From an uncultured Deinococcales bacterium (GTDB lineage Bacteria > Deinococcota > Deinococci > Deinococcales > JAAFIG01), in contig CAXTTL010000183.1 of assembly GCA_964247135.1 (NCBI GenBank), positions 1 to 10,000 of the forward strand: DNA of 10,000 nucleotides, read 5' to 3'. The notes under the pieces were generated by a model, which was not told where the DNA came from, ran no database searches, and worked only from the letters and a program-made list of their open reading frames with translations. This document shows positions 1-10,000 of the stretch, one piece after another (position 1 is the stretch's first letter; each line of letters opens with the position of its first letter). The position numbers were made by a program, and so were the translations under genes.

Positions 1-517
1 CAGCCTTTAAGAATTGGTCACGCACCTCGGGTCCCACGGCGTAATGCTTCAAACAAATGCCAGGTCCAATCGCGGCACGGACCTGCTCGAGGTTTGCACC
101 AAGCTCGAGCATCTGTCGCAGGGTGTGATCGAGAATTTTGCCGACCGTCCCGCGCCAACCGCAGTGTGCCGCGCCGATCACACCGTTGACGCGGTCCTCG
201 AGCAATACCGGGTAACAATCGGCGGTTTCGATCACCAAGGCAATACTGGTTTTGGCGCTCACCAGCGCATCACCCTCGAGCACCACGCCTGGAATTGCCT
301 GAACCACCTGACTCGAGTGAATTTGGCTCAGCCTTGCCAGCGATTCTGGCTTCAACCCAAGCCTACTTAAGGCTTGCCCACGATTCTCGAGCACGCGGTC
401 TGGGTCATCACCGACCCGTTCGGAGAGGTTTAAACCGGCAAAATCTCCGGCGCTCGAGCCTCCAGCGCGGGTCGAAAAACCATGATTGCTCTGTAAATTC
501 GGGGCGTGTAACCACAT
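1..517 (-). CDS. pgeF: PgeF/YfiH (LACC1-like) purine nucleoside phosphorylase / peptidoglycan editing factor; 3' end lies beyond the left edge of the window
   Basis: Hand translation from ATG (cat at 515-517): MWLHAPNLQSNHGFSTRAGGSSAGDFAGLNLSERVGDDPDRVLENR...SQIHSS...EGDALVS...VIETADCYPVLL...GAAHCGWRGTVG...AAIGPGICLKHYAVGPEVRDQF. It has the family motifs HGFSTR, QxH, ADC, AHxGWRG and IGPxI..YxVG. The ORF track probably missed it because no stop codon lies in the window. Confidence 0.93.
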   Translation of the reverse strand, partial: MWLHAPNLQSNHGFSTRAGGSSAGDFAGLNLSERVGDDPDRVLENRGQALSRLGLKPESLARLSQIHSSQVVQAIPGVVLEGDALVSAKTSIALVIETADCYPVLLEDRVNGVIGAAHCGWRGTVGKILDHTLRQMLELGANLEQVRAAIGPGICLKHYAVGPEVRDQFLKA

Positions 518-524
518 CGCGCCC

Positions 525-530
525 AGTTTA
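525..530 (-). promoter_or_regulatory. -10 element (TAAACT) 7 nt upstream of the pgeF ATG; probable leaderless promoter
   Basis: Minus strand reads ggggTAAACTgggcgcgATG, with no Shine-Dalgarno. Confidence 0.65.
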
Positions 531-716
531 CCCCAGGACCTGAGGATTTCTGAGTTTGAGGCATCAAGTGACACCCAAAATGGTCTAGAAGAGAATTACC
601 TCGTTCTCGAGGGGCTTTTTTTGAGTTAAAAACCTTGGGTTGCTTGGCGTAAAGGCACTTGGTGAGGGTGATTTGATCAGATAAGCCAAAAAACCACACC
701 AGGCAATGGGATTCTT

Positions 717-725
717 TGCTACACT
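717..725 (+). promoter_or_regulatory. Candidate extended -10 promoter (TGcTACACT) for the 865-2706 gene
   Basis: TG-n-TAnnnT match in the divergent intergenic region; no clear -35. Confidence 0.45.
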
Positions 726-864
726 GGATTCTTAATGAAACGTTACTTGCAAGACAATCATCAATTTGCGTTCTTTATGGGCTTTGTGGCTGTTCAAAAG
801 GGGAGGCTAGATCAAATCCGTTTGGGTTTGAAATCCAGCTCGAGTCTGATTTCGGGGGAGCATC

Positions 865-2706
865 ATGGATGAAAACATTACACCGTTAGCCAAGAAGCTG
901 GCGGAAGAAAACTCGATAGATTGGCGTTTTATCAGGGGCACGGGTCCGGCTGGCAAGGTCATCGAACGTGACATCTTGAGTTACTTGGCAAGAATCATGT
1001 CCGGCGAATTGGATTTGCCCGCCATGCCCGACGCTTCAGAGCCGGCGGGTCCTGCGGCAGGTTCCGCCAACATGCCCGACATGGGGCAAGTCGCCAACTT
1101 TGATTTGATGAGCGCCAGCATGGCTAAAGAGGGCGTCGACTTAAATTCGATGCTGGGTGATTTCGCTGCACCCGCCCCAGCTTTGGTACAGACACCGCCA
1201 GTCCCCGAGTACGATTTTTCGATGCCAGTCACCCCGGTCTCGAGCGTCAACGATGATGTCGTGATCTCGAGCCAGGTTGCCGCCGTCTCGATGCCTGAAG
1301 TTGCTGCGCCAAGTCCCAAAGCCCTCGAACCAGACGATACCGTGTTCGAGTTTGACCTTGACGACATTGACGACATTGAACCAGTCTCAACCTTGCACAA
1401 CCCAGACTTGTTCCCCGCCGAAATCGCGGCACCTGTCAACGCCGCGCCAAGCTCGAGCCTGGACGAGGATCACATCATGACCGTCACCGACGACCATGAC
1501 ATGGTTGTACCGTCCGATGAGGTCACCCTCAGCCCAGGGGACGATATTTTGGTGCACGTCAGTGGCGAATTTGAACCTGTGCCCGATCCACTCGAGAATG
1601 TCGCATTCGAGTTGGATGCGCAAAGCCATCATGAACCCGCCCAAACATTGATTGTTGAAGATGCGATTCTTGCGCCCGAACCAGAATTGGTGGTCGACGA
1701 TGTTGCCACCCCCGTCGCGCATCAAGAACCCGCCGGTGTGTCGCTCGAGGGTCTAGCCGCAGTTGGTGCCGGTGTGCTGGGCGTTGGTGCGGCATTGGGA
1801 CATGTTGGACATACGCCAGTTGTCAACGATCTCGAGCTTGATTCCCCAGTGGTGGTCGCGCCAGCCGTCACCCATCTCCAACCCGAACCGCTGGTTGCCC
1901 CAGTCATGAGCGAGCCTGAGATTGCCACAGTCATGACCGAGCCAATGATCGCACATTTTGATCCCGAACCGATTCATGTCCAAGCCGAACCGGTGGTTGC
2001 CCCCGAACCTGAACCGATTCATCCTGAACCTGAAATTGTGGTTGCACCCGAACCAGTTCACGTCCCCGACCCTGTTGTGGTCGCACTCGAGCCTGAAGCC
2101 GTTCATGTCCCAGCACAACCAGAACCAATGCCCGTTGTCATCCCAGCCGCAATTGAACCCCCAATGCATCTGGACGCCTCGAGCCAAAACGTGGCTGTAG
2201 TTGCCCCCAGCTCGAGCGTGCACAAAGATTTTTTCAACACCAACATTTTGCGCCGTCAGTTCAATGCCAGCGCCCTGATGGACATTCGGACGCAAATTTC
2301 CAAAGCGCTGAACGGACGCGAAGTTCAACTTGGGGTCTTTGTCGGACGCGCCGCGCAACGCGGACTGTACCTGCTCGGCACCACCGATGCGGTCACGCTC
2401 AACAAACTCGAGGCGGGACTGGTGCCGCTCAGTACAGCAGGTTTGCATCACAGCTTTATCGAGGCGGTCCAAAGTGTCAACCATGCCGATGCGGGAACGG
2501 CAAACGGTTTGGCGGTGCTCGACGCATCCAGCTTGGGCGTGGACGATCTGGTCTTGCCCGCCAGCGGTGCGCTGCTCGCCTTGGGACAGATCAGCAACAA
2601 CGTGGGAACACTGACCCTATCGGGTGATTTCCCAGCCAAAGCTGGCGCGGAATTCCTGGCACAGGTTGCAGGGGCGCTCGAGACGCCGGTCGGACTGGTG
2701 CTCTAA
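865..2706 (+). CDS. E3-binding (PSBD) domain protein with long acidic Pro-rich linker and degenerate 2-oxoacid dehydrogenase E2-like C-terminal domain (613 aa)
   Basis: N-terminus ITPLAKKLAEENSIDWRFIRGTGPAGKVIERDI matches the peripheral subunit-binding domain pattern. C-terminus LTLSGDFPAKAGAEFLAQVAGALETPVGLVL mirrors the E2 ending (LSLSxDHRxxDGxxxxxFL...LExP..L) but lacks DHR. SD-like GGGGAG precedes the ATG and a terminator follows. Confidence 0.85.
   Translation: MDENITPLAKKLAEENSIDWRFIRGTGPAGKVIERDILSYLARIMSGELDLPAMPDASEPAGPAAGSANMPDMGQVANFDLMSASMAKEGVDLNSMLGDFAAPAPALVQTPPVPEYDFSMPVTPVSSVNDDVVISSQVAAVSMPEVAAPSPKALEPDDTVFEFDLDDIDDIEPVSTLHNPDLFPAEIAAPVNAAPSSSLDEDHIMTVTDDHDMVVPSDEVTLSPGDDILVHVSGEFEPVPDPLENVAFELDAQSHHEPAQTLIVEDAILAPEPELVVDDVATPVAHQEPAGVSLEGLAAVGAGVLGVGAALGHVGHTPVVNDLELDSPVVVAPAVTHLQPEPLVAPVMSEPEIATVMTEPMIAHFDPEPIHVQAEPVVAPEPEPIHPEPEIVVAPEPVHVPDPVVVALEPEAVHVPAQPEPMPVVIPAAIEPPMHLDASSQNVAVVAPSSSVHKDFFNTNILRRQFNASALMDIRTQISKALNGREVQLGVFVGRAAQRGLYLLGTTDAVTLNKLEAGLVPLSTAGLHHSFIEAVQSVNHADAGTANGLAVLDASSLGVDDLVLPASGALLALGQISNNVGTLTLSGDFPAKAGAEFLAQVAGALETPVGLVL
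1880..2165 (+). repeat. Degenerate coding repeats (EPEPIH / PVVAPEP / PEPVHVP units) in the linker
   Basis: Protein: DPEPIHVQAEPVVAPEPEPIHPEPEIVVAPEPVHVPDPVVVALEPEAVHVPAQPEP. DNA gaaccgattcat occurs at 1966 and 2011; gtggttgcmcccgaacc occurs twice. Confidence 0.7.
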
Positions 2707-2724
2707 AAACGTTTAACCGTGGTC

Positions 2725-2759
2725 ACGGATGGGTTTCGAGTGAAACCCATCCGTTTTTT
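2725..2759 (+). terminator. Intrinsic (Rho-independent) terminator
   Basis: Perfect 13-bp stem ACGGATGGGTTTC-gagt-GAAACCCATCCGT followed by TTTTT, 18 nt after the stop at 2706. Confidence 0.9.
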
Positions 2760-2920
2760 AAGCCAATTTGCAGCTTGGGCTTTTCATTCGCATTGACTCT
2801 CGTGCTAACCTGTCAAGACTGTGCCGATTGGCACTTGAGCGACCAATACTCTTGCTGTATGTAATAGAACGTATTTTCACGCGCCATGCATGGTCGATTC
2901 AACGAAGGAGGCTTTCACCC

Positions 2921-4135
2921 TTGATTACCGCCAAACCCCAAGATGCCTTTGAAAAGGCACGAAAATTCAACCGAGCCGAGGAGGCTCATGCGGCAGGGTT
3001 GTACCCCTACTTTAAAGCCATTCAACACCATCACGGTGGCAGCGTGATGGTGGACGGCGAAGAATATGTCCTGACTGGCAGCAACGATTACTTGGGTTTA
3101 ACCCAGGACGAACGCATCAAACAGGCGGCTCGAGACGCGGTTGAGACTTACGGCACCAGTTGCACAGGCTCGAGGTTTTTAACCGGCACGCTCGACATTC
3201 ACGAAACCCTGGAGGCTGAACTTGCCGAGTTTTTTGGTAAAGAACAGGTGCTGGTTTTCGCCGCCGGTTTTCTGGCTTGCGCCTCGAGCGTCGCGGCGTT
3301 AACGGGTCGCCACGATTTGATTTACTTTGACCGCGAAAACCATGCCAGCCTTTACGACGGTTTTAAACTGGCGAACGTGCGCAACGAACAACTGCGCCGT
3401 TTTGATCACAACGACGCCAACGATTTTGAACGCCTCTTAAAAGAGGACGAGGGCAAACCAGGCGGGCGAATCGTCTACACCGAGGGCGTGTTCTCGATGA
3501 GCGGGCATATCGGCGTGGTGGACAAGATTGTTGAGGTCGCCAAGCGTTACGGTTGCCGCGTGGTTTGCGACGATGCCCACGCGACTGGGGTTCTTGGACC
3601 GCTCGGGCAGGGTGCCCATTACCATTTCAACATTCAAAATGATGTCGACCTGGTGGTTGGAACCTTCTCGAAGTCTTTTGCCAGCGTGGGCGGTTTTGTC
3701 GCCGGCGAAAAAGAGGTGGTCGAATGGATCAAACACACCGCGCGACCGTTTATTTTTAACGCTGCACTGCCAGGACCCAATGCCGCCGCGACGCTCGAGG
3801 CGTTGCGCATCATGCGCAGCGAACCGGAGCACCGCGAACGCATGTGGAAAAACGTCAACTTTATGCGCGATAACCTTTTGACCCTCGGTTTTGATTTGCT
3901 CGGCTCGGACAGCCCGATCATTCCGGTGCTGGCAGGCGACGATGACACCGCCATTTTATTCTGGAAGGGCTTGTGGGCTGAAAAAATCTTCACCACCCCA
4001 AGTCTGCCGCCAGCCGTTCCCAAAGGGCAGAGCATCATTCGCACCAGTTACAACGGGGCGCACACCCAACCGCAACTCGAGAAAACCTTGCAGGCTTTTG
4101 AAAAAGTTGGACGCGAACTCGGTGTGATTTCTTAA
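2921..4135 (+). CDS. PLP-dependent alpha-oxoamine synthase (BioF/KBL/SPT family), most similar in motifs to bacterial serine palmitoyltransferase (404 aa)
   Basis: Motifs GLYPYF, GSNDYLGL, YGTSCTGSRFLTGT, NHAS, EGVFSM, DDAH, GTFSKS (PLP lysine at 3671-3673) and PPAVP..IIRTS. Start moved from 2768 to TTG at 2921, 9 nt after AGGAGG (2906-2911). Confidence 0.88.
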   Translation: MITAKPQDAFEKARKFNRAEEAHAAGLYPYFKAIQHHHGGSVMVDGEEYVLTGSNDYLGLTQDERIKQAARDAVETYGTSCTGSRFLTGTLDIHETLEAELAEFFGKEQVLVFAAGFLACASSVAALTGRHDLIYFDRENHASLYDGFKLANVRNEQLRRFDHNDANDFERLLKEDEGKPGGRIVYTEGVFSMSGHIGVVDKIVEVAKRYGCRVVCDDAHATGVLGPLGQGAHYHFNIQNDVDLVVGTFSKSFASVGGFVAGEKEVVEWIKHTARPFIFNAALPGPNAAATLEALRIMRSEPEHRERMWKNVNFMRDNLLTLGFDLLGSDSPIIPVLAGDDDTAILFWKGLWAEKIFTTPSLPPAVPKGQSIIRTSYNGAHTQPQLEKTLQAFEKVGRELGVIS

Positions 4136-4152
4136 AAACAGATTTTAAGTTG

Positions 4153-4187
4153 AAGCTCGAGAAACGCTACTGTTTCTCGAGCTTTTT
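4153..4187 (+). terminator. Intrinsic terminator between convergent genes (possibly bidirectional), with CTCGAG in both arms
   Basis: 13-bp perfect stem AAGCTCGAGAAAC-gctact-GTTTCTCGAGCTT with a T run at 4183-4187, lying between stops at 4135 (+) and 4200 (-). Confidence 0.85.
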
Positions 4188-4199
4188 GATGCCCTTGCA

Positions 4200-4652
4200 C
4201 TACGGTTTTTGAATCGGAACCCAAATCTCAAAATTTGGATTTTCGTCGCCAAAATCCTGCCCGTAGCGTTCCAAATCTGGTGCGTCCCCTCGAGTGAAAC
4301 CAGAACCAGGCAACCAATTGGCGTAGGCGTGGTTGAAGACTTGCGAAACGTTTTCCAAATTGGCTGGGAACACCGCGTAATCGCAGGCTGGGATTTTCCA
4401 AAGCTGCATCGAAGGCGGTATCTCAAAATCGTTACCGACTGCTTCACCCGCCATGTAATGCAACACGCCACTCGAGCGCTCAAGCTGCATCACGCCGTAA
4501 CTCACGCCTGGTTCGGCTCGGGGTAAATCAGGTTTGGATTGCCCCATAAAACGTTGCCAAAGTGCGCCAACCTCTGGTGATCCTGGCGTGGTGTCGATAG
4601 CCGTGCCAACAACGGCAAAAGCCTTGTTCGAGACAATTTTTGGTGATTCCAT
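4200..4652 (-). CDS. Stand-alone GyrI-like small-molecule-binding domain protein (AraC effector-binding/Cass2-like), 150 aa
   Basis: Pattern P.IV....F.VVG ... LWQRF ... YG ... YMAG..V ... IPA.DYAVF ... WLP.SGF ... DLERY ... EIWVPI; SD AAAGGAG 7 nt before the ATG. Confidence 0.88.
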   Translation of the reverse strand: MESPKIVSNKAFAVVGTAIDTTPGSPEVGALWQRFMGQSKPDLPRAEPGVSYGVMQLERSSGVLHYMAGEAVGNDFEIPPSMQLWKIPACDYAVFPANLENVSQVFNHAYANWLPGSGFTRGDAPDLERYGQDFGDENPNFEIWVPIQKP

Positions 4653-4673
4653 CGGGTTGCTCCTTTGGCTCAG

Positions 4674-4679
4674 ATTCTA
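4674..4679 (-). promoter_or_regulatory. Candidate -10 (TAGAAT) for the GyrI-like gene, directly abutting a CTCGAG
   Basis: Minus strand: ggtttctcgagTAGAATctgagccaaaggagcaacccgATG. Confidence 0.5.
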
Positions 4680-4712
4680 CTCGAGAAACCAAAAACAATT
4701 CACTCAAAAATT

Positions 4713-4738
4713 GAAAAACACCTGATATTTCAGGGCGC
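4713..4738 (-). terminator. Possible weak terminator after the lipoprotein gene
   Basis: Minus strand gcgcCCTGA-aata-TCAGGtgtttttc; short stem extendable with G-U pairs, about 50 nt after the stop at 4790. Confidence 0.35.
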
Positions 4739-4789
4739 ATGACCATGCGCCGCCACGTTTTCGGATTGAATTCCTGGTCAGTCGAGTCT

Positions 4790-5251
4790 TTACCTGTTGC
4801 CAGAAATCCGCTCGAAAATCGTGCTGATGTAATTAAACGTTTCAGTCTCGAGCTTATCGAGTTTGGCTGGAATCTCGAGGTTGGAGGTCGTTACGGCGGA
4901 GAGCGAGAAATAATAATCCCCACGATCCCGTATCGTCCAAACGCTGTGCACCGTGCCAGCGCTGTTGTTTGCCTTGGCGGCGAACACCAAACGGGCGTAA
5001 GAATAGGTGATCAGCGATTCGTTCGCCTGGTATTTCAGGCGCTCGAAGCCCGTCACATTGCTCGAGTTGAGGGCGTCAATCAAAATCACGGCAATCTCTT
5101 GGGTGAACGAACTTGAGCGGTTCTCAAACGACGGTTTGTTGAGCGAGCGGTACAAGACCTCGCCAGGGTTTGGTGTGACCAAATTTGAACTTGGGGCGCA
5201 AGAAAAAAAGATCAAACTGAGCGCTGTCATCAGGATCAAAAACCGTTTCAT
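4790..5251 (-). CDS. Hypothetical lipoprotein, 153 aa
   Basis: MKRFLILMTALSLIFFSC-APSS: basic n-region, hydrophobic h-region and Cys18 in a lipobox-like FFSC. It fills the gap between flanking genes, and TAAACT lies 6 nt upstream of the ATG. Confidence 0.75.
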   Translation of the reverse strand: MKRFLILMTALSLIFFSCAPSSNLVTPNPGEVLYRSLNKPSFENRSSSFTQEIAVILIDALNSSNVTGFERLKYQANESLITYSYARLVFAAKANNSAGTVHSVWTIRDRGDYYFSLSAVTTSNLEIPAKLDKLETETFNYISTIFERISGNR

Positions 5252-5257
5252 GAAAAA

Positions 5258-5309
5258 AGTTTAACGCGATTTGATGAAAACATTCTCGAGACAGACAATC
5301 AGATAAGCT
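5258..5309. promoter_or_regulatory. Back-to-back leaderless promoters: TAAACT (5258-5263, minus) and TAAGCT (5304-5309, plus)
   Basis: Each hexamer is exactly 6 nt from its ATG (5251 minus; 5316 plus); neither gene has an obvious Shine-Dalgarno. Confidence 0.65.
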
Positions 5310-5315
5310 GGGATC

Positions 5316-6188
5316 ATGATTTTGGTAACTGGAGCCACGGGAAATGTTGGTTACGATGTACTGCGCGGTTTGCTTGAATTTCAAGTACCCGTTCGCGCGG
5401 CAGTCACCGACCTAACCCGTGCTCGCGCCACACTGCCCGAAGGCTCAAATGTGGAGCGTTTTGATTTTAATGACCCAAGCACGTTTGCGGCTGCCCTTGA
5501 TGGGATCACCCGTGTTTTTTTGATGCGCCCTCCGATCATGGATGATCCAAAAGCCTTCAAACCTTTTTTAAAAGCGCTGGCATCCAAAGGGCTTGAACAA
5601 TTGGTTTTCCTATCCTTGCTTGGGGCACAAAACAACCCAGTTGTGCCGCACCGCAAGCTCGAGCTTGTCATTGAAAAGCTCAACATTCCGCACGTGTTTT
5701 TACGTCCTAGTTTCTTCTTGCAAAATTTTTCGACAACCCATCGCTCGGACATCTGCGAACGCAACGATTTGTTTATCCCAGCCGGTACTGGTCGCACAAG
5801 TTTTATTGATGCCAGGGATATTGCCGCCGTTGCTGTGCGTGCCTTGACTGTGCCGCACATTGTCAATGGTGGGCTTGACCTGACTGGGGGTCAAGCCCTG
5901 ACATACTCGGAGGTGGCAACGGTTTTTAGCCAGGTGCTTGGGCGAACCATCACGTACTCGGACCCCCTGCCATTAAAGTTTGGACTCGAGATGCAAAAGC
6001 GCGGTATGAAACCTGCGTTTGTCAACATCATGATCTTGATTTACAACACAAACCGTTTTGGACTGGCGGCTCAGGTCACAAACGACGTAAGGCGCATTCT
6101 TGGGCGTGATCCGCTGAGGGTTCAGGATTTTGTGCGCGATTTCAAAGACCTGTTTTCCAAGACGCCAGGCTCAGGCGAGACAACCTAA
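5316..6188 (+). CDS. NmrA-family / atypical SDR NAD(P)-binding oxidoreductase, 290 aa
   Basis: MILVTGATGNVG Rossmann motif, LVFLS, H...E, LRPSFFLQN, SFIDARDIAAVA, LTG..ALTY.EVA...S.VLGR.I.Y. Confidence 0.9.
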   Translation: MILVTGATGNVGYDVLRGLLEFQVPVRAAVTDLTRARATLPEGSNVERFDFNDPSTFAAALDGITRVFLMRPPIMDDPKAFKPFLKALASKGLEQLVFLSLLGAQNNPVVPHRKLELVIEKLNIPHVFLRPSFFLQNFSTTHRSDICERNDLFIPAGTGRTSFIDARDIAAVAVRALTVPHIVNGGLDLTGGQALTYSEVATVFSQVLGRTITYSDPLPLKFGLEMQKRGMKPAFVNIMILIYNTNRFGLAAQVTNDVRRILGRDPLRVQDFVRDFKDLFSKTPGSGETT

Positions 6189-6303
6189 TCAAAACCTTCT
6201 CGAGACGCGATACTTCACGTTTGATACCAGCAGTTTCGCGGTTCAAGGTTTCCTGATACCTGCCGATTGAGTGGCGCTCAGCCCAAATTTAGATCGCCAG
6301 AAG

Positions 6304-6312
6304 TGATAGTAT
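6304..6312 (+). promoter_or_regulatory. Candidate extended -10 (TGaTAGTAT) for the cox cluster
   Basis: TG-n-TAnnnT 35 nt upstream of the coxG ATG; SD AGGAGGA at 6334-6340. Confidence 0.4.
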
Positions 6313-6347
6313 TTTTGGAGTCAGAACAAAAACAGGAGGAATTCACC

Positions 6348-6797
6348 ATGCTTCTCGAGGGAAGTCATTTCATTCATTTGCCCCCAAATCGCGTTTTTGC
6401 ACTTTTGAACGACCCCGACGTGCTTTCCAGATGCGTGCCAGGCGTCAAAAGTTTGGTCGTTGACGGTACGGATTCTTACAAAGCCCAAGTTGAGGTGGCG
6501 ATTGGTCCTGTCAAGGGCAAATTTGACGGCAAAATTGCCATCACCGAAAAGGTGCAAGACCAAAGCATGACTTTAAAAGTCGAATTTAAATCGCCGGTCG
6601 GCATTGCCAACGCGCTCGGAACACTCAAACTCGAGCCTGAAAATGATGGCACCACCGTTCACTGGGCGGGCGAACCACAGCTCATGGGCATGATCGCCAG
6701 CGTCGGCGCACGGCTTATTGGTGGCGTGGCAAAAGTACAAGCCGATTTGTTTTTCTCCAAACTCGAGCAAGAGGCACAAACCCTTGCCAGCATTTGA
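6348..6797 (+). CDS. coxG: CoxG-like SRPBCC domain protein, 149 aa
   Basis: MLLEGSHFI...VFALLNDPDVLSRCVPG...IGPVKGKFDG...GMIASVGARLIGGVAK.QADLFF is typical of CoxG. Start moved to ATG 6348 after AGGAGGA; directly upstream of coxS/coxL. Confidence 0.9.
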   Translation: MLLEGSHFIHLPPNRVFALLNDPDVLSRCVPGVKSLVVDGTDSYKAQVEVAIGPVKGKFDGKIAITEKVQDQSMTLKVEFKSPVGIANALGTLKLEPENDGTTVHWAGEPQLMGMIASVGARLIGGVAKVQADLFFSKLEQEAQTLASI

Positions 6798-6888
6798 AGG
6801 TCGCAGGAGTGAATCCGCATGAACACAAGTTGAATTTCACCTCGAGCGGCGCAGGTTTTGAATTGTTTATTTTCAAGGAGGCTAGAAC

Positions 6889-7401
6889 ATGGCACAAGTG
6901 GTTGCAGTAACAATGACCGTCAACGGCGTGAAATCCACACACCATCCCGAACCGCGCACGCTCTTGGTGCATTATTTGCGCGAAAAACTGGGTTTGACCG
7001 GCACGCACGTGGGTTGTGACACCAGTCAATGCGGCGCGTGTACCGTCCATGTCGACGGCATGGCGGTGAAATCGTGCACCATGTTTGCGGTGCAAGCCGA
7101 AGGTGCTGTCATCACCACCATCGAAGGCATGGGCGAGGTTGGGCATTTGCACGCCCTGCAAAGCGGTTTCTGGGAAGAGCACGGTCTGCAATGCGGGTTT
7201 TGCACCCCAGGCATGATCATGAGTTCCGCCGATCTGCTGAGTCATAACCCCAACCCGAGCGAGTCTGAGATTCGTCACGCGCTCGAGGGGAATTTTTGCA
7301 GGTGCACGGGTTATCACAACATCGTCAAAGCTGTGCAAAATGCGGCACATAGCATGGCGCAGACGACAGCGCACAACATGGCGCAGGCGGCAGACGATTA
7401 A
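6889..7401 (+). CDS. coxS: Two [2Fe-2S] cluster small subunit of a xanthine-oxidase-family molybdoenzyme (CoxS/CutS), 170 aa
   Basis: [12 protein letters not shown]...[11 protein letters not shown] and CRCTGY cysteine motifs; SD AAGGAGG upstream. Confidence 0.96.
7345..7392 (+). repeat. Degenerate 24-nt tandem duplication at the coxS 3' end (AHSMAQTT / AHNMAQAA)
   Basis: gcacatagcatggcgcagacgaca vs gcgcacaacatggcgcaggcggca, 19/24 identical. Confidence 0.7.
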
Positions 7402-7428
7402 GCCAAAACCTTTTGCGACGACCTCAAA
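7398..7428 (+). repeat. ~30-bp dispersed element, copy 1 (overlaps coxS stop)
   Basis: TTAAGCCAAAACCTTTTGCGACGACCTCAAA; 26/31 aligned identity to 9908-9937. Confidence 0.7.
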
Positions 7429-7529
7429 GCTCAAGATTGATAACAAGTTTGAAATTGAAAAAACCCGAGCTTCAAGTTTTCACCGCTCGAGCACTTTGGT
7501 TTCTCGAGACAGCGTTTAAGGAGAAGTCC

Positions 7530-9896
7530 ATGACCGAAAAATTTTTTGGCAAAGCCGTGAAACGCGTCGAAGACCCGCGTTTTATCACGGGCGCAGGAAA
7601 TTATACCGACGATATTGTGCTCCATAACATGACCTACGCGGCGATGGTGCGCTCGCCCTATGCGCACGCAAAAATCAATTCGATTGACGCCTCGGCGGCT
7701 TTGGCGCTGCCTGGTGTGCTGGCGGTCTTGACGGGCAAAGATTTGGTGGCGGCTGGCATCAACCCGATTCCGCCAGGTTGGTTGCTGCCCGACATCAAAA
7801 TCTCGGCGCACCACGCAATCCAACCCGAAAAGGTCAGCCACGTCGGCAACATTGTGGCTGCCGTGATTGCCGAAACCCGAGCGATTGCCGAGGATGCGGT
7901 CGCATTGGTAGACGTCGATTACGAGATGCTGCCCGCCGTGGCATTGGGCAGTACCGCATTGGCTGAGGGCGCATCGCAAGTGCATGAAAATGCACCTGGC
8001 AACGTGGCGTTCCAATGGGAAATTGGCGATTCCGCCGCCGTGGACGCCGAATTCGCCAAAGCCTTCAAAACCGTCGAAGTCAAACTTCGCAACCACAGGC
8101 TCGTGCCAAACGCCATCGAACCACGCTCGAGCCTGGCGGATTACAAACGCGCCGGCGATGAGTACACGCTCTACACGACCAGCCAAAATCCGCACATTCA
8201 CCGCGTCATGCTGGGCGCGTTTATCATGGGCATCCCAGAGCACAAATTGCGAATTGTTTCGCCCGATGTCGGCGGCGGTTTTGGCAGCAAAATCTTCCAA
8301 TACCCTGAAGAAGTAATTGTGCTGTTTGCCTCCAAAAAAATAAACCGCCCTGTTAAATGGACGGCGACCCGTTCGGAATCGTTCGTTTCCGATGCGCAGG
8401 GACGCGACCACGAGACGGTTGCTCAAATGTGCGTGGACGCCAACCACAAGGTGCTGGCGTTGCGCGTCAAAACCATCGCCAACCTCGGCGCGTTCCTGAC
8501 CACCTTTGCGCCAGCCGTGCCAACGTACTTGTACGGCACACTCATGAACGGCACGTACAAATGGAAAGCCATTCACTGTGCCGTGACTGGCACGTACACC
8601 AACACCGTCGGCGTGGATGCCTACCGTGGCGCGGGACGCCCAGAAGCCACGTATGTGCTCGAGCGCATCATGAGCCGCATGGCGCTCGAGCTTGGTGTTG
8701 ATCCGCTCGAGTTCAGGCGCAAGAATTTTATTCAACCCGACGAATTCCCGTATCAGACTCCAGTTGCGTTGCAATACGACTCTGGCAATTACGAACCCGC
8801 GATGGACAAAGCCATGCAGATGCTCGATTACGCAAAGCTCCGAGCAGAGCAAGCCGAAGGGCGTAAAAACGGCAAATACATCGGCATTGGGGTTTCGACC
8901 TACCTCGAGGCTTGCGGGCTTGCCCCAAGCGCCCTGGTGGGCAGCCTGGGCGCTCAGGCGGGGCAATGGGAGTCGGCACTCGTTCGGGTCAGCGCCACGG
9001 GCAAGGTCGAGGTCTTGACGGGTTCGCACAGCCACGGGCAAGGTCACGAAACCGCGTTCGCGCAGGTGGTTGCCGACGAACTGCAAATTCCAATGGAAGA
9101 CGTCAGCATCGTTCACGGCGACACCGCAAGACTGCCGCACGGTTGGGGGTCTTACGGCTCGAGAAGCGCCCCCGTGGGCTTGAGCGCGATCAAAATGGCA
9201 TCGGACAAGATCAACGACAAAGCCAAGAAAATTGCCGCGCACCTGCTCGAGGCGAGCGTGGACGACATCGTTCACGAGGACGGCAAATTCCAAGTCAAGG
9301 GCGTGCCCGAAAAATCCAAATCCTTCTTCGACGTGGCACTCATGGCGCACCTGGCGCACAATTACCCAGCCGACCTCGAGCCAGGACTGGAAGCCACGCA
9401 TTTTTACGACCCGAAAAACTTCGTCTATCCGTTCGGTACGCACCTTGCCGTGGTTGAAGTGGATGCCAACACCGGACACGTTCAGCTCATTCGTTACGTC
9501 TGCGTCGATGACTGCGGTCCGATTATCAACCCACTCATCGTCGAGGGGCAAGTTCACGGCGGCGTCGCCCAAGGCATGGGACAGGCACTCCTCGAGAACA
9601 CCGTTTACGACGACAACGGACAACTGACCAGCGGCTCGTACCTCGAGTACACCATGCCGCGAGCCGACAACATGGTTCAACTCGAGATAGGTCATACCGT
9701 CACGCCCAGCCCGCACAACCCGCTCGGCTTGAAGGGCATCGGCGAGGCAGGCACGATCTCGAGCACTGCCGCGATTGCCAATGCCGTGATCGACGCGCTC
9801 GAGCCGTTTGGCGTGAAACACCTCGATATGCCCTACACCGCCGAGAAGGTCTGGCGGGCGATCAGCTCGAGCCTGCCACAAGCCGCAAACGACTAG
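7530..9896 (+). CDS. coxL: Molybdopterin-binding large subunit, xanthine dehydrogenase family; form II CoxL/CutL-like (788 aa)
   Basis: KRVEDPRFITGAG.Y.DD, RSPYAHA, VGGGFGSK, AYRGAGRPEA (AYRGAGR at 8619-8639), HGQGHET, GSRS, EGQVHGG..QG.G, KGIGEAG. Start moved to ATG 7530 after AAGGAG. Confidence 0.95.
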   Translation: MTEKFFGKAVKRVEDPRFITGAGNYTDDIVLHNMTYAAMVRSPYAHAKINSIDASAALALPGVLAVLTGKDLVAAGINPIPPGWLLPDIKISAHHAIQPEKVSHVGNIVAAVIAETRAIAEDAVALVDVDYEMLPAVALGSTALAEGASQVHENAPGNVAFQWEIGDSAAVDAEFAKAFKTVEVKLRNHRLVPNAIEPRSSLADYKRAGDEYTLYTTSQNPHIHRVMLGAFIMGIPEHKLRIVSPDVGGGFGSKIFQYPEEVIVLFASKKINRPVKWTATRSESFVSDAQGRDHETVAQMCVDANHKVLALRVKTIANLGAFLTTFAPAVPTYLYGTLMNGTYKWKAIHCAVTGTYTNTVGVDAYRGAGRPEATYVLERIMSRMALELGVDPLEFRRKNFIQPDEFPYQTPVALQYDSGNYEPAMDKAMQMLDYAKLRAEQAEGRKNGKYIGIGVSTYLEACGLAPSALVGSLGAQAGQWESALVRVSATGKVEVLTGSHSHGQGHETAFAQVVADELQIPMEDVSIVHGDTARLPHGWGSYGSRSAPVGLSAIKMASDKINDKAKKIAAHLLEASVDDIVHEDGKFQVKGVPEKSKSFFDVALMAHLAHNYPADLEPGLEATHFYDPKNFVYPFGTHLAVVEVDANTGHVQLIRYVCVDDCGPIINPLIVEGQVHGGVAQGMGQALLENTVYDDNGQLTSGSYLEYTMPRADNMVQLEIGHTVTPSPHNPLGLKGIGEAGTISSTAAIANAVIDALEPFGVKHLDMPYTAEKVWRAISSSLPQAAND

Positions 9897-9907
9897 AGCT
9901 ATAAGCC

Positions 9908-9937
9908 TTAAGCCAAACCCTATTGCGCCGTCTCAAA
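9908..9937 (+). repeat. ~30-bp dispersed element, copy 2 (11 nt after coxL stop)
   Basis: TTAAGCCAAACCCTATTGCGCCGTCTCAAA; matches 7398-7428. Confidence 0.7.
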
Positions 9938-10000
9938 AAGAGCAGAAGCCTGTCCTAAAACGAATGCAAACCCCACTCAGAAAATTCGAGTAAATGCTTT

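Follow-up and report, generated by a model that had tools for sequence, protein, structure and literature searches.

Introduction

The palindrome HIP1 has, to our knowledge, been known for about 30 years, during which no consensus on its function has emerged, and every highly iterated palindrome (HIP) described so far belongs to one phylum, the cyanobacteria. Here we describe a HIP-like word, the hexamer CTCGAG, in a stretch of 10,000 nucleotides from an uncultured Deinococcales bacterium (positions 1–10,000 of the forward strand of contig CAXTTL010000183.1, assembly GCA_964247135.1; hereafter the window), in the metagenome-assembled genome (MAG) to which the window belongs (G000), and in related genomes.

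HIP1 (GCGATCGC) and the alternate HIPs (GGCGCC, GCsGC and rCCGGy) are GC-rich palindromes, which are more than 15-fold over-represented and occur in every reading frame as well as in non-coding DNA (PMC4390886; PMC5861425). The occurrence of HIP1 has been read as a sign of methylation-guided repair (PMC4390886) or of a role in chromosome structure (PMC5861425). CTCGAG is likewise palindromic, at least 15-fold enriched genome-wide, found in all frames and in non-coding DNA, and conserved both inside and between open reading frames (ORFs), and thus deserves the comparison with HIPs that an earlier reading of the window, made from its letters alone (the sequence-only reading), had drawn. Like HIP1, it is conserved between relatives beyond background, its one-off variants are common, and it is lineage-wide with exceptions in sister groups (PMC4390886; PMC5861425). 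It differs from the HIPs in its phylum (Deinococcota), in the word itself and in its density, being a hexamer at ~6,660 copies/Mb compared to 500–2,500/Mb for HIPs (PMC4390886). Moreover, each HIP was reported together with a cognate methylase, whereas no conserved cognate methyltransferase of CTCGAG was found in the family genomes searched, and unlike in HIP1, deviations from CTCGAG are not concentrated at the outer positions.

The DNA uptake sequences (DUS) of Neisseria and the uptake signal sequences (USS) of the Pasteurellaceae are asymmetric words of 9–12 nt that occur about once per kb; by these figures CTCGAG, at 6.7 sites/kb, is ~6–7 times denser. CTCGAG resembles them in its family-wide excess, in an approximate doubling of the encoded peptide, in its preference for weakly constrained genes and residues, and in the foreign-looking character of motif-poor genes (PMC2817400). 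A mild excess of CTCGAG just downstream of genes is a further likeness. In contrast to DUS and USS, the word is palindromic with only 6 bp and forms no inverted pairs in terminator stems.

Chi sites and the CCWGG target of Dcm and Vsr are short, self-associated words enriched through repair or recombination, and CTCGAG may be compared with them as well. Chi is asymmetric, strand-skewed and enriched only few-fold, while very-short-patch (VSP) repair acts at one T:G position and needs both Vsr and Dcm. In contrast to the Dcm/Vsr case, no Vsr was found in G000, C5 methylases are patchily distributed, and the predicted depletion of neighboring words was not observed. The same six bases as CTCGAG are also the target of restriction-modification (R-M) systems of the XhoI/PaeR7I type. 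Such targets are normally avoided, as CTCGAG is in the Deinococcus-like family f3, whereas the word is enriched 25- to 58-fold here and the XhoI nuclease family was not found in any of the 19 family genomes searched. An orphan methyltransferase of Nocardia acts on CTCGAG in a non-defense role (Blow et al. 2016; PMC4752239); there the motif is clustered only at the replication origin, whereas the CTCGAG sites described here are spread evenly genome-wide and no matching methylase was found in the genomes searched.

A full-text literature search that did not extend to supplements, whose methylome tables (PMC4752239 and a hot-spring preprint) may cover Deinococcota, retrieved neither a description of hyper-abundant CTCGAG in a prokaryote nor one of a HIP outside the cyanobacteria. 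An independent and denser case in the Deinococcota means that the HIP phenomenon is no cyanobacterial peculiarity.

Abundance of CTCGAG

The window contains exactly 58 copies of CTCGAG, the first at 86–91 and the last at 9866–9871, whereas 200 dinucleotide-preserving shuffles yielded 1.77 copies on average (standard deviation 1.32, largest 5) and none of them reached 58. The sequence-only reading had arrived at about 58 copies between 86 and 9871 by hand, in agreement with this exact search, and its estimate of a ~20-fold excess turned out to be conservative. Over the base composition of the whole genome, the excess was 24.7-fold.

G000 comprises 5.09 Mb in 386 contigs (median 9.3 kb, 52.7% GC), of which the window is contig C183. 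It is 84% complete, and the completeness of the MAGs analyzed ranges from 57 to 94%. A self-trained gene caller predicted 4,273 genes (85% coding), in agreement with the Pfam matches inside the window. No other hexamer of this genome is nearly as over-represented as CTCGAG, whose 33,925 copies amount to one every 150 bp and make up 4.0% of all bases. The excess was 35-, 14- and 3.4-fold over Markov models of orders 1, 2 and 3, respectively, and 58-fold over a dinucleotide model with the sites masked. The maximal-order (order-4) Markov model left an excess of only 1.24-fold, a figure that is circular and uninformative because CTCGAG itself contains 88% of the CTCGA pentamers and 62% of the TCGA tetramers of the genome. 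Every one of the 825 non-overlapping 5-kb windows of the genome held at least 8 copies (mean 33.3, standard deviation 7.9), with over-dispersed counts (variance/mean ~1.9), and contigs of at least 5 kb ranged from 2.6 to 10.5 copies per kb. Coding DNA held 6.54 sites/kb, compared to 7.34 sites/kb for non-coding DNA.

Shuffling synonymous codons within genes produced 3,918 sites (10 shuffles, range 3,780–3,983) compared to 28,385 observed, a ~7.2-fold excess over a null model that is conservative, since CTCGAG itself inflates codon usage. All three frames contributed, with 17,675 observed vs 3,064 shuffled sites for CTC-GAG (62% of the genic sites), 4,196 vs 284 for xCT-CGA-Gxx and 6,514 vs 570 for xxC-TCG-AGx. 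In the 2,908 intergenic segments, 5,338 sites were observed, whereas dinucleotide-preserving shuffles gave 150 ± 11 (largest 173), a 36-fold difference. The enrichment therefore survives both codon- and dinucleotide-preserving shuffles and extends far beyond the window, and the earlier argument that codon usage alone cannot account for it holds.

The flanks of the sites were almost free of information; G at −1 (39%) and A at −3 (37%) were the most marked preferences. Extended palindrome arms occurred at chance level, with arms of at least 3 bp at ~2% of the sites and arms of at least 5 bp at just 20 non-coding sites. The sites are therefore bare hexamers and no pieces of a repeat or hairpin. 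A dispersed element resembling repetitive extragenic palindromes (REP) or miniature inverted-repeat transposable elements (MITE) was ruled out, as no conserved sequence exists past the 6-bp core, and the chance-level arm lengths likewise ruled out that the sites are centers of terminator hairpins or of longer palindromes. Altogether, an uncultured Deinococcales family possesses a highly iterated palindrome, CTCGAG, which is kept at the DNA level. In practical terms, XhoI would cut unmodified DNA of these organisms every ~150 bp.

Conservation and turnover of sites

For a comparison with the same-genus relative G005, 350 kb were taken, of which 251 kb aligned to G000 at 85.8% identity. In this alignment 1,434 of 1,815 CTCGAG sites (79%) were conserved, compared to 44% of other hexamers in each codon phase, and the non-coding sites behaved in the same manner (160 of 209, or 77%, vs 42% of other hexamers). 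This agrees with the earlier proposal that something genome-wide maintains the motif. Genome-specific sites numbered 381 in G000 and 277 in G005. Single-base differences at sites were transitions that were distributed evenly over the six positions (22–33 each), with no excess at the CpG cytosine and no excess of C-to-T changes at either cytosine. According to phase-matched substitution tables, the motif changed into one-off words at 0.27 times and one-off words changed into the motif at 4.5 times the background rate. This ~17-fold asymmetry (ln 2.8), a rough and unpolarized estimate, corresponds to a scaled strength of roughly 2–3. In the window region, sites were retained above other hexamers in all family comparisons but two (L023 and L024, with 3 of 16 sites each, equal to background), and the trend was also seen across genera.

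The spacing of sites was near-exponential (coefficient of variation 0.96), with a deficit below ~18 bp and no pair 6 bp apart; the latter is explained by the absence of GAGCTC (see below). How close the nearest site lies had almost no influence on conservation (75% to 82%; the 95% confidence interval of the coefficient includes 0). Among sites lost in the relative, 18.4% had a site specific to the relative within 60 bp, compared to 12.5% for random positions, and none of 200 random sets reached 18.4%. Compensatory turnover was nevertheless not accepted, as this weak signal is confounded by local rate heterogeneity and the test for density dependence was not significant. The one-mismatch neighbors of CTCGAG occurred at 0.7–2.5 times expectation with no position singled out, and TTCGAG (1.9-fold) and CTTGAG (1.6-fold) were not depleted. 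A search of sequencing runs retrieved only two contig-level matches (shares 0.06–0.07) and no raw reads. Together, the results on conservation, turnover and spacing reveal a directional force at the DNA level, which is weak and pervasive and acts site by site on the word as a whole.

Distribution within the Deinococcales

The window encodes a CoxL-type molybdopterin dehydrogenase, whose closest relatives are 81–98% identical proteins in records of MAGs named “Deinococcales bacterium”, followed by proteins of Meiothermus and Deinococcus with ~72–75% identity. Judged by these protein matches, the lineage is assigned to an uncultured Deinococcales family. CTCGAG was counted in 161 genomes of the order (genome sizes rounded). 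All 19 genomes of the family, from five genera, carried 4.3–6.8 sites/kb, including the closed 5.1 Mb chromosome G011 with 23,515 sites. Lower densities characterized the Meiothermus-like genera g13, g22 and g24 of family f5 (1.4–3.4/kb) and several genera of f2 (2–2.6/kb), while the Thermus-like genus g9 had ~0.6–1.1/kb, close to the reversed word GAGCTC. The 40 genomes of the Deinococcus-like f3 contained just 26–1,193 copies each. At orthologous loci, the observed count divided by the expected one (O/E) was 15–33 in the “Deinococcales bacterium” MAGs (0–1 for GAGCTC), 5–11 in named Meiothermus, 0–0.5 in most Deinococcus, and ~0.3–2.4 in most outgroups, apart from three with values of up to 4.3 and a single short locus with 9.1. 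The sequence-only reading had mentioned a CTCGAG enrichment in some Deinococcota such as Meiothermus; we could not trace this statement to a paper, but the named loci and the Meiothermus-like genera agree with it.

The trait is old, graded and lineage-specific, and it is no assembly artefact, as it recurs in independent assemblies including the closed G011. One word is driven in opposite directions in sister families, namely the family described here and f3. The Deinococcus-like loci sampled for CTCGAG depletion were L039, L042–L046 and L064, and no XhoI-family nuclease was found in the three f3 genomes searched, despite the depletion of its target there. Two genomes of genus g6 in f2 (G019 and G063) and G147 (g36) combined moderate CTCGAG densities (1.5–2.1/kb) with near-absence of GAGCTC (62–145 copies), like a weaker form of the family pattern.

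Effects on codon usage and the proteome

In G000, 77.1% of the 22,929 Leu-Glu dipeptides are spelled CTCGAG, whereas CTC makes up 15.1% of the Leu codons that are not followed by Glu, and GAG 32.2% of the Glu codons that are not preceded by Leu. In the other frames, 42% of the compatible [ASPT]-R-[VADEG] and 49% of the x-S-[SR] tripeptides carry the word. Leu-Glu itself ranks first among the 400 dipeptides of the proteome (O/E 2.34), compared to an O/E of 1.01 for Glu-Leu. The motif occupies 4% of the genome and has altered protein sequences. With 77% of one dipeptide spelled by a single hexamer, such distorted codon and dipeptide statistics would mislead composition-based gene finding, detection of horizontal gene transfer, and binning.

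Genes with ribosomal-protein-like codon usage contained fewer sites, with 3.4/kb in the top 2% vs 7.0–7.6/kb in the lower classes (Spearman −0.25, n = 3,073), while the fraction of Leu-Glu spelled CTCGAG was 0.71–0.84 in every codon-usage class. The ribosomal-protein operon (L16, PF00252) was not found in G000, and ribosomal-protein genes were hence taken from relatives; those of G005 had 2.24 sites/kb, with 17 of 20 Leu-Glu spelled CTCGAG. Since synonymous options are saturated everywhere, differences in density reflect how far protein constraint has let Leu-Glu and the other-frame peptides arise. The force saturates the synonymous options (~80% of Leu-Glu in every expression class) and pushes proteins toward Leu-Glu where constraint allows. 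An example is CoxL, with 12 Leu-Glu in G000 and 8–12 in seven family, 6–9 in six Meiothermus and 4–6 in six Deinococcus orthologues. At most of the G000 Leu-Glu positions the outgroups have Val-, Ile-, Met-, His- or Gln-Glu or Leu-Arg; judged from this alignment, Leu-Glu is the derived state in CoxL and the sites arose at poorly conserved residues. Along genes, site density was flat except for a dip in the first 20 bp of the coding sequence and a two-fold peak in the first 40 bp past stop codons.

Motif-poor genes were rare among long genes (45 of 2,038), and most of them had atypical GC contents. Of nine examined motif-poor genes with normal GC, six encode ABC-transporter solute-binding proteins or permeases. 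Such ABC-transporter genes with normal GC and almost no CTCGAG lie at C1:85083–86447, C18:28886–31276, C101:6270–7430, C105:7990–9093 and C90:9284–10246 of G000; C1:85083–86447 and C18:30356–31276 combine a high ribosomal-protein-like codon usage with zero Leu-Glu. Avoidance of the motif in highly expressed genes was ruled out, as synonymous use is unchanged and the motif-free ABC-transporter genes simply lack Leu-Glu.

Possible function as a self-DNA tag

Tentatively, we favor the view that CTCGAG is a self-DNA tag, which is linked to transformation or recombination and accumulates by drive. In this scenario the word would be recognized by a conserved DNA-handling activity of the lineage, and alleles carrying it would be transmitted preferentially. 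The tag would act in natural transformation and/or homologous recombination, like an uptake sequence or a Chi site, and the word would accumulate by molecular drive. Unlike HIP1, such a tag appears to be free of dependence on one vertically inherited cognate methyltransferase. We hold with slightly more reserve the broader proposition that CTCGAG is the first HIP outside the cyanobacteria, needs no dedicated cognate methyltransferase, and serves as a 6-bp self-DNA tag that, through transformation- or recombination-linked drive or biased gene conversion, has taken over 4% of the genome and left a measurable mark on the proteome.

A self-DNA tag is favored because of the fit to the proteome signatures of uptake sequences, namely the doubled Leu-Glu, the preference for weakly constrained genes and residues, and the foreign-looking motif-poor genes, and because of recent work on HIP1, which increases the efficiency of transformation and for which a function as an uptake signal or a Chi-like recombination signal has been proposed (10.1101/2024.09.10.611283; PMC13756078). 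The independence of the sites, the presence of the trait in all 19 family genomes and its weaker form in related genera also speak for this view. Cultured Thermus and Deinococcus are naturally competent and polyploid.

Several points weigh against a self-DNA tag. No candidate receptor or nuclease was identified. The genomes are MAGs with 57–94% completeness, and composition-based binning of MAGs may drop motif-poor contigs and thereby exaggerate uniformity, to which the closed G011 is a counterpoint. A 6-mer discriminates poorly, and the marginal gain of one more site should be small because at 6.7 sites/kb any kb-sized fragment already holds several. Drive to such a density is hard to model, and the combination of low information with very high density is the main conceptual difficulty. 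Known uptake sequences are long (9–12 nt), non-palindromic and sparse (~1 per kb), and DNA uptake by Thermus has been reported as not sequence-specific. The data single out no mechanism, since the observed conservation and the pattern of gains and losses are expected under selection as well as under biased gene conversion or motif-directed repair. Finally, methylation by non-orthologous or undetected methylases would be compatible with the tests of gene content; the specificity of a methylase is unreadable from its sequence.

If a tag without cognate methyltransferase is indeed at work, its graded presence (extreme, moderate, absent, avoided) would provide a natural experiment through which the reader protein and the function of HIPs in general could be established. 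The different word, the lack of an obvious cognate methylase, and culturable relatives with a weaker form of the trait (Meiothermus) make the competing ideas on HIPs, namely methylation-guided repair, an uptake or recombination tag and nucleoid structure, testable in a second system, and the graded distribution over the 161 genomes suits phylogenetic profiling for the responsible protein.

Methylases, nucleases and other candidate machinery

The strongest alternative to a self-DNA tag, which we regard as possible but unlikely, is a methylation-linked HIP as proposed by Elhai: CTCGAG would be the target of one or more orphan methyltransferases, and its methylated sites would be selected or created for strand choice in mismatch repair, replication control, regulation or self-marking. 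Precedents are the cognate methylase that accompanies each HIP or alternate HIP in cyanobacteria (PMC4390886), the orphan CTCGAG methylase of Nocardia with its origin-clustered motif (PMC4752239), and an m5C methylase specific for CTCGAG in Halorubrum (PMC8112702). A hot-spring meta-epigenome preprint further describes methylated CTCGAG and TCGA that are shared in one host-phage subnetwork, the phylum of which is not stated in the available passages.

The XhoI nuclease family and orthologues of resident methylases were searched for in 31 genomes, 19 of which (including G000) belong to the family. G000 carries at least 10 DNA methylase genes, comprising two C5, four or five beta-class N6/N4, one Dam-like and two MmeI-like methylases, a type I HsdM and a methylase-SNF2 fusion. 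Two partial genes at contig ends, C4:2–397 and C207:3–827, are overlapping parts of one N6/N4 methylase (91% identity over 47 residues) and probably represent a single gene split over both contigs; that their identity is 91% rather than 100% points to heterogeneity among strains or to a pair of paralogues within the MAG. The locus C189:4077–5632 (L078) encodes a beta-class methylase of 258 aa, which overlaps an ORF of 260 aa. These two, with 38–40% GC and 0–1 CTCGAG within a region of normal site density, are probably a recently acquired R-M pair. The other methylases bear the CTCGAG signature of the genome itself, and by this content several of them are long-resident, which speaks for a methylation-linked HIP.

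The distribution of the resident methylases argues in the opposite direction. Among the 18 other family genomes, orthologues at ≥70% identity were found in two genomes for C36, four for C207, two for C178 (≥79% identity), three for C14, three for C4b, and six for the Dam-like methylase (four of five in the genus of the window, one of eight in g5), so that none of these six enzymes is common to the whole family. The orthologues of C4b (466 aa, on contig C4) in G005 (C76, L112; one TGA and one TAG) and G012 (C72, L113; two TGA) contain in-frame stops and are probably pseudogenes. A stop-interrupted homologue of the C36 methylase with 54% identity is present in G019. No methylase class was universal in five further family genomes either, the closed G011 lacking PF01555 and G008 lacking a C5 methylase; PF02384 proteins occurred in all five, mostly at 25–41% identity with one pair at 82%.

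A compact gamma-class methylase of the TaqI/PaeR7I type and Vsr (PF03852) were both absent from the 84%-complete G000. The XhoI nuclease family (PF04555) was found in none of the 19 family genomes and in only one of the 31 searched, G021 of a sister family, where the gene adjoins a PF01555 methylase. A tblastn search with this nuclease gave no match in G000, and the best match of the neighboring methylase there (26% identity) was the recent C189 gene. Across the order, Thermus-like genomes (15 of 22) and f4 genomes (13 of 23) had homologues of the G021 methylase, whereas none of the 18 other family genomes and none of the 16 genomes of g13, g22 and g24 had one. ComEC is encoded in G000 and also in 10 of 14 control genomes, and is hence non-discriminating.

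Two features of the sites add to the evidence against methylation: the lack of a C-to-T excess at either cytosine speaks against unrepaired m5C, and the spacing is random and not even as a repair-guiding mark would need. In the genomes searched, no support emerged for one inherited cognate methylase, for an R-M system of the XhoI type or for patch repair of the Vsr type. Of the earlier interpretation, the HIP-like nature of CTCGAG, its genome-wide maintenance and the enrichment in Meiothermus stand, whereas the proposed XhoI/PaeR7I-like orphan methyltransferase with a repair bias is not supported, given that the XhoI family and Vsr were not found in the genomes searched, the patchy methylases, and the lack of neighbor depletion.

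Chromosome structure and mutational bias as improbable alternatives

We consider it improbable that the sites form a binding array for an abundant nucleoid or chromosome-organizing protein, with each site weakly selected for its part in compaction or in the structure of domains, a model that Xu et al. (2018) put forward for HIP1 together with a 10–90 kb periodicity of site density. The conservation of sites in both coding and non-coding DNA, which is the same argument as made for HIP1 (PMC5861425), the palindrome, which fits a dimeric DNA-binding protein, and the weak signal of compensatory turnover within 60 bp would agree with such an array. However, conservation is almost independent of local site density, spacing is near-random with over-dispersed counts per 5 kb, and local heterogeneity of rates confounds the compensation signal. 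Nor is a candidate protein known, and the individual selection of 34,000 sites would be a heavy load.

A purely mutational origin seems less probable still. Here, motif-directed mismatch correction, a generalized form of VSP repair, would resolve near-cognate mismatches to CTCGAG without benefit for the cell. It would act alike in coding and non-coding DNA, site by site, slowing losses and speeding gains. A precedent is the CCWGG excess that Dcm and Vsr cause in E. coli, and the polyploidy of Deinococcota, with its frequent gene conversion, would amplify such a bias. Against it stand the missing Vsr in the 84%-complete G000, the restriction of a Vsr-type enzyme to one T:G position whereas six positions are kept equally here, the absence of a selectively depleted one-mismatch neighbor, and the lack of a conserved C5 methylase.

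Trivial explanations (biased codons or dinucleotides, a family of dispersed repeats or of terminator hairpins, an artefact of assembly or binning) have a negligible probability and were tested and rejected: CTC and GAG are common codons, 62% of the genic sites lie in the CTC-GAG frame, the order-4 Markov excess is small and density doubles right after stop codons, but codon shuffles account for only 3,918 of the 28,385 genic sites, CTC falls to 15% of Leu codons without a following Glu, the intergenic excess is 36-fold, the order-4 result is circular, flanks and arms are at chance, and the excess is found again across the 19 family genomes, one of which is a closed chromosome, as well as in isolates of named Meiothermus.

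CTCGAG sites in the window

The 58 sites, which as palindromes have no strand, span 86–9871 and start at positions 86, 104, 197, 275, 312, 386, 453, 606, 839, 1239, 1266, 1452, 1591, 1744, 1831, 2086, 2178, 2211, 2407, 2677, 3129, 3169, 3283, 3794, 4076, 4156, 4176, 4289, 4471, 4680, 4847, 4874, 5061, 5285, 5658, 5985, 6199, 6354, 6630, 6762, 6841, 7282, 7486, 7503, 8126, 8658, 8685, 8706, 8904, 9158, 9246, 9375, 9591, 9642, 9681, 9758, 9798 and 9866. All nine genes or ORFs in the gene list of the window contain at least one site, and all three frames are represented (32 CTC-GAG, 3 xCT-CGA-Gxx and 15 xxC-TCG-AGx), as had been claimed. The frame examples given earlier are correct as well: the site at 1239–1244 (+), within the E3_binding-domain gene (865–2706), reads xxC TCG AGx and encodes Val-Ser-Ser; the site at 3129–3134 (+), within the aminotransferase gene (2768–4135), reads xCT CGA Gxx and encodes Ala-Arg-Asp; and the site at 3169 encodes Gly-Ser-Arg.

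According to the same gene list, eight sites in 0.9 kb are intergenic (606–611, 839–844, 4156–4161, 4176–4181, 4680–4685, 5285–5290, 6199–6204 and 6841–6846), the one at 4156 lying 21 bp past the stop codon of the aminotransferase gene. The tally becomes 11 in ~1.36 kb if the doubtful ORF 4790–5251 is not a gene, close to the ~10 copies in ~1.3 kb counted in the sequence-only reading. The CoxL-type gene (7413–9896, +) contains 16 sites, and 11 of its 12 Leu-Glu are spelled CTCGAG. An open frame of 816 aa runs antisense to this gene of 827 aa at 7431–9881 (−); it is a shadow ORF and no gene, because the CoxL gene is nearly devoid of TTA, CTA and TCA codons (0, 0 and 1, respectively). An Rfam scan of the window matched no RNA family.

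Other word biases in the genome

Words of the form GRGCYC are almost absent from G000, with no GAGCTC, one GGGCCC and 10 copies of GAGCCC/GGGCTC in 5.09 Mb (~1,400–3,000 expected for each); the window likewise contains no GAGCTC. Most family genomes have 3–25 copies of GAGCTC, with exceptions at 114, 161 and 568. The avoided set matches a BanII-type recognition sequence. A link between the CTCGAG excess and the absence of GAGCTC was rejected, as the correlation seen in f5 (rho −0.64, n = 39 related genomes) weakened to −0.27 when f2 and f5 were pooled and to −0.01 for genus means (n = 27). The absence of GAGCTC belongs to a separate GRGCYC avoidance.

Further depleted words in G000 were GGCC (380 copies, O/E 0.016) and CTAG (O/E 0.07). 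Among the rare palindromes were CGGCCG (3 copies), AGGCCT (4), CGTACG (5), GGATCC (7), CCGCGG (11), CAGCTG (15), GCATGC (17), ACTAGT (18) and AGATCT (25), a depletion far stronger than usual restriction avoidance. CGATCG was present in 47 copies, and the genome therefore has no HIP1. At the other extreme, A-rich words (CAAAAA, AAAACC, TCAAAA, CAAAAC and their complements) were 4.5- to 5.8-fold enriched over composition, with similar densities in coding and non-coding DNA.

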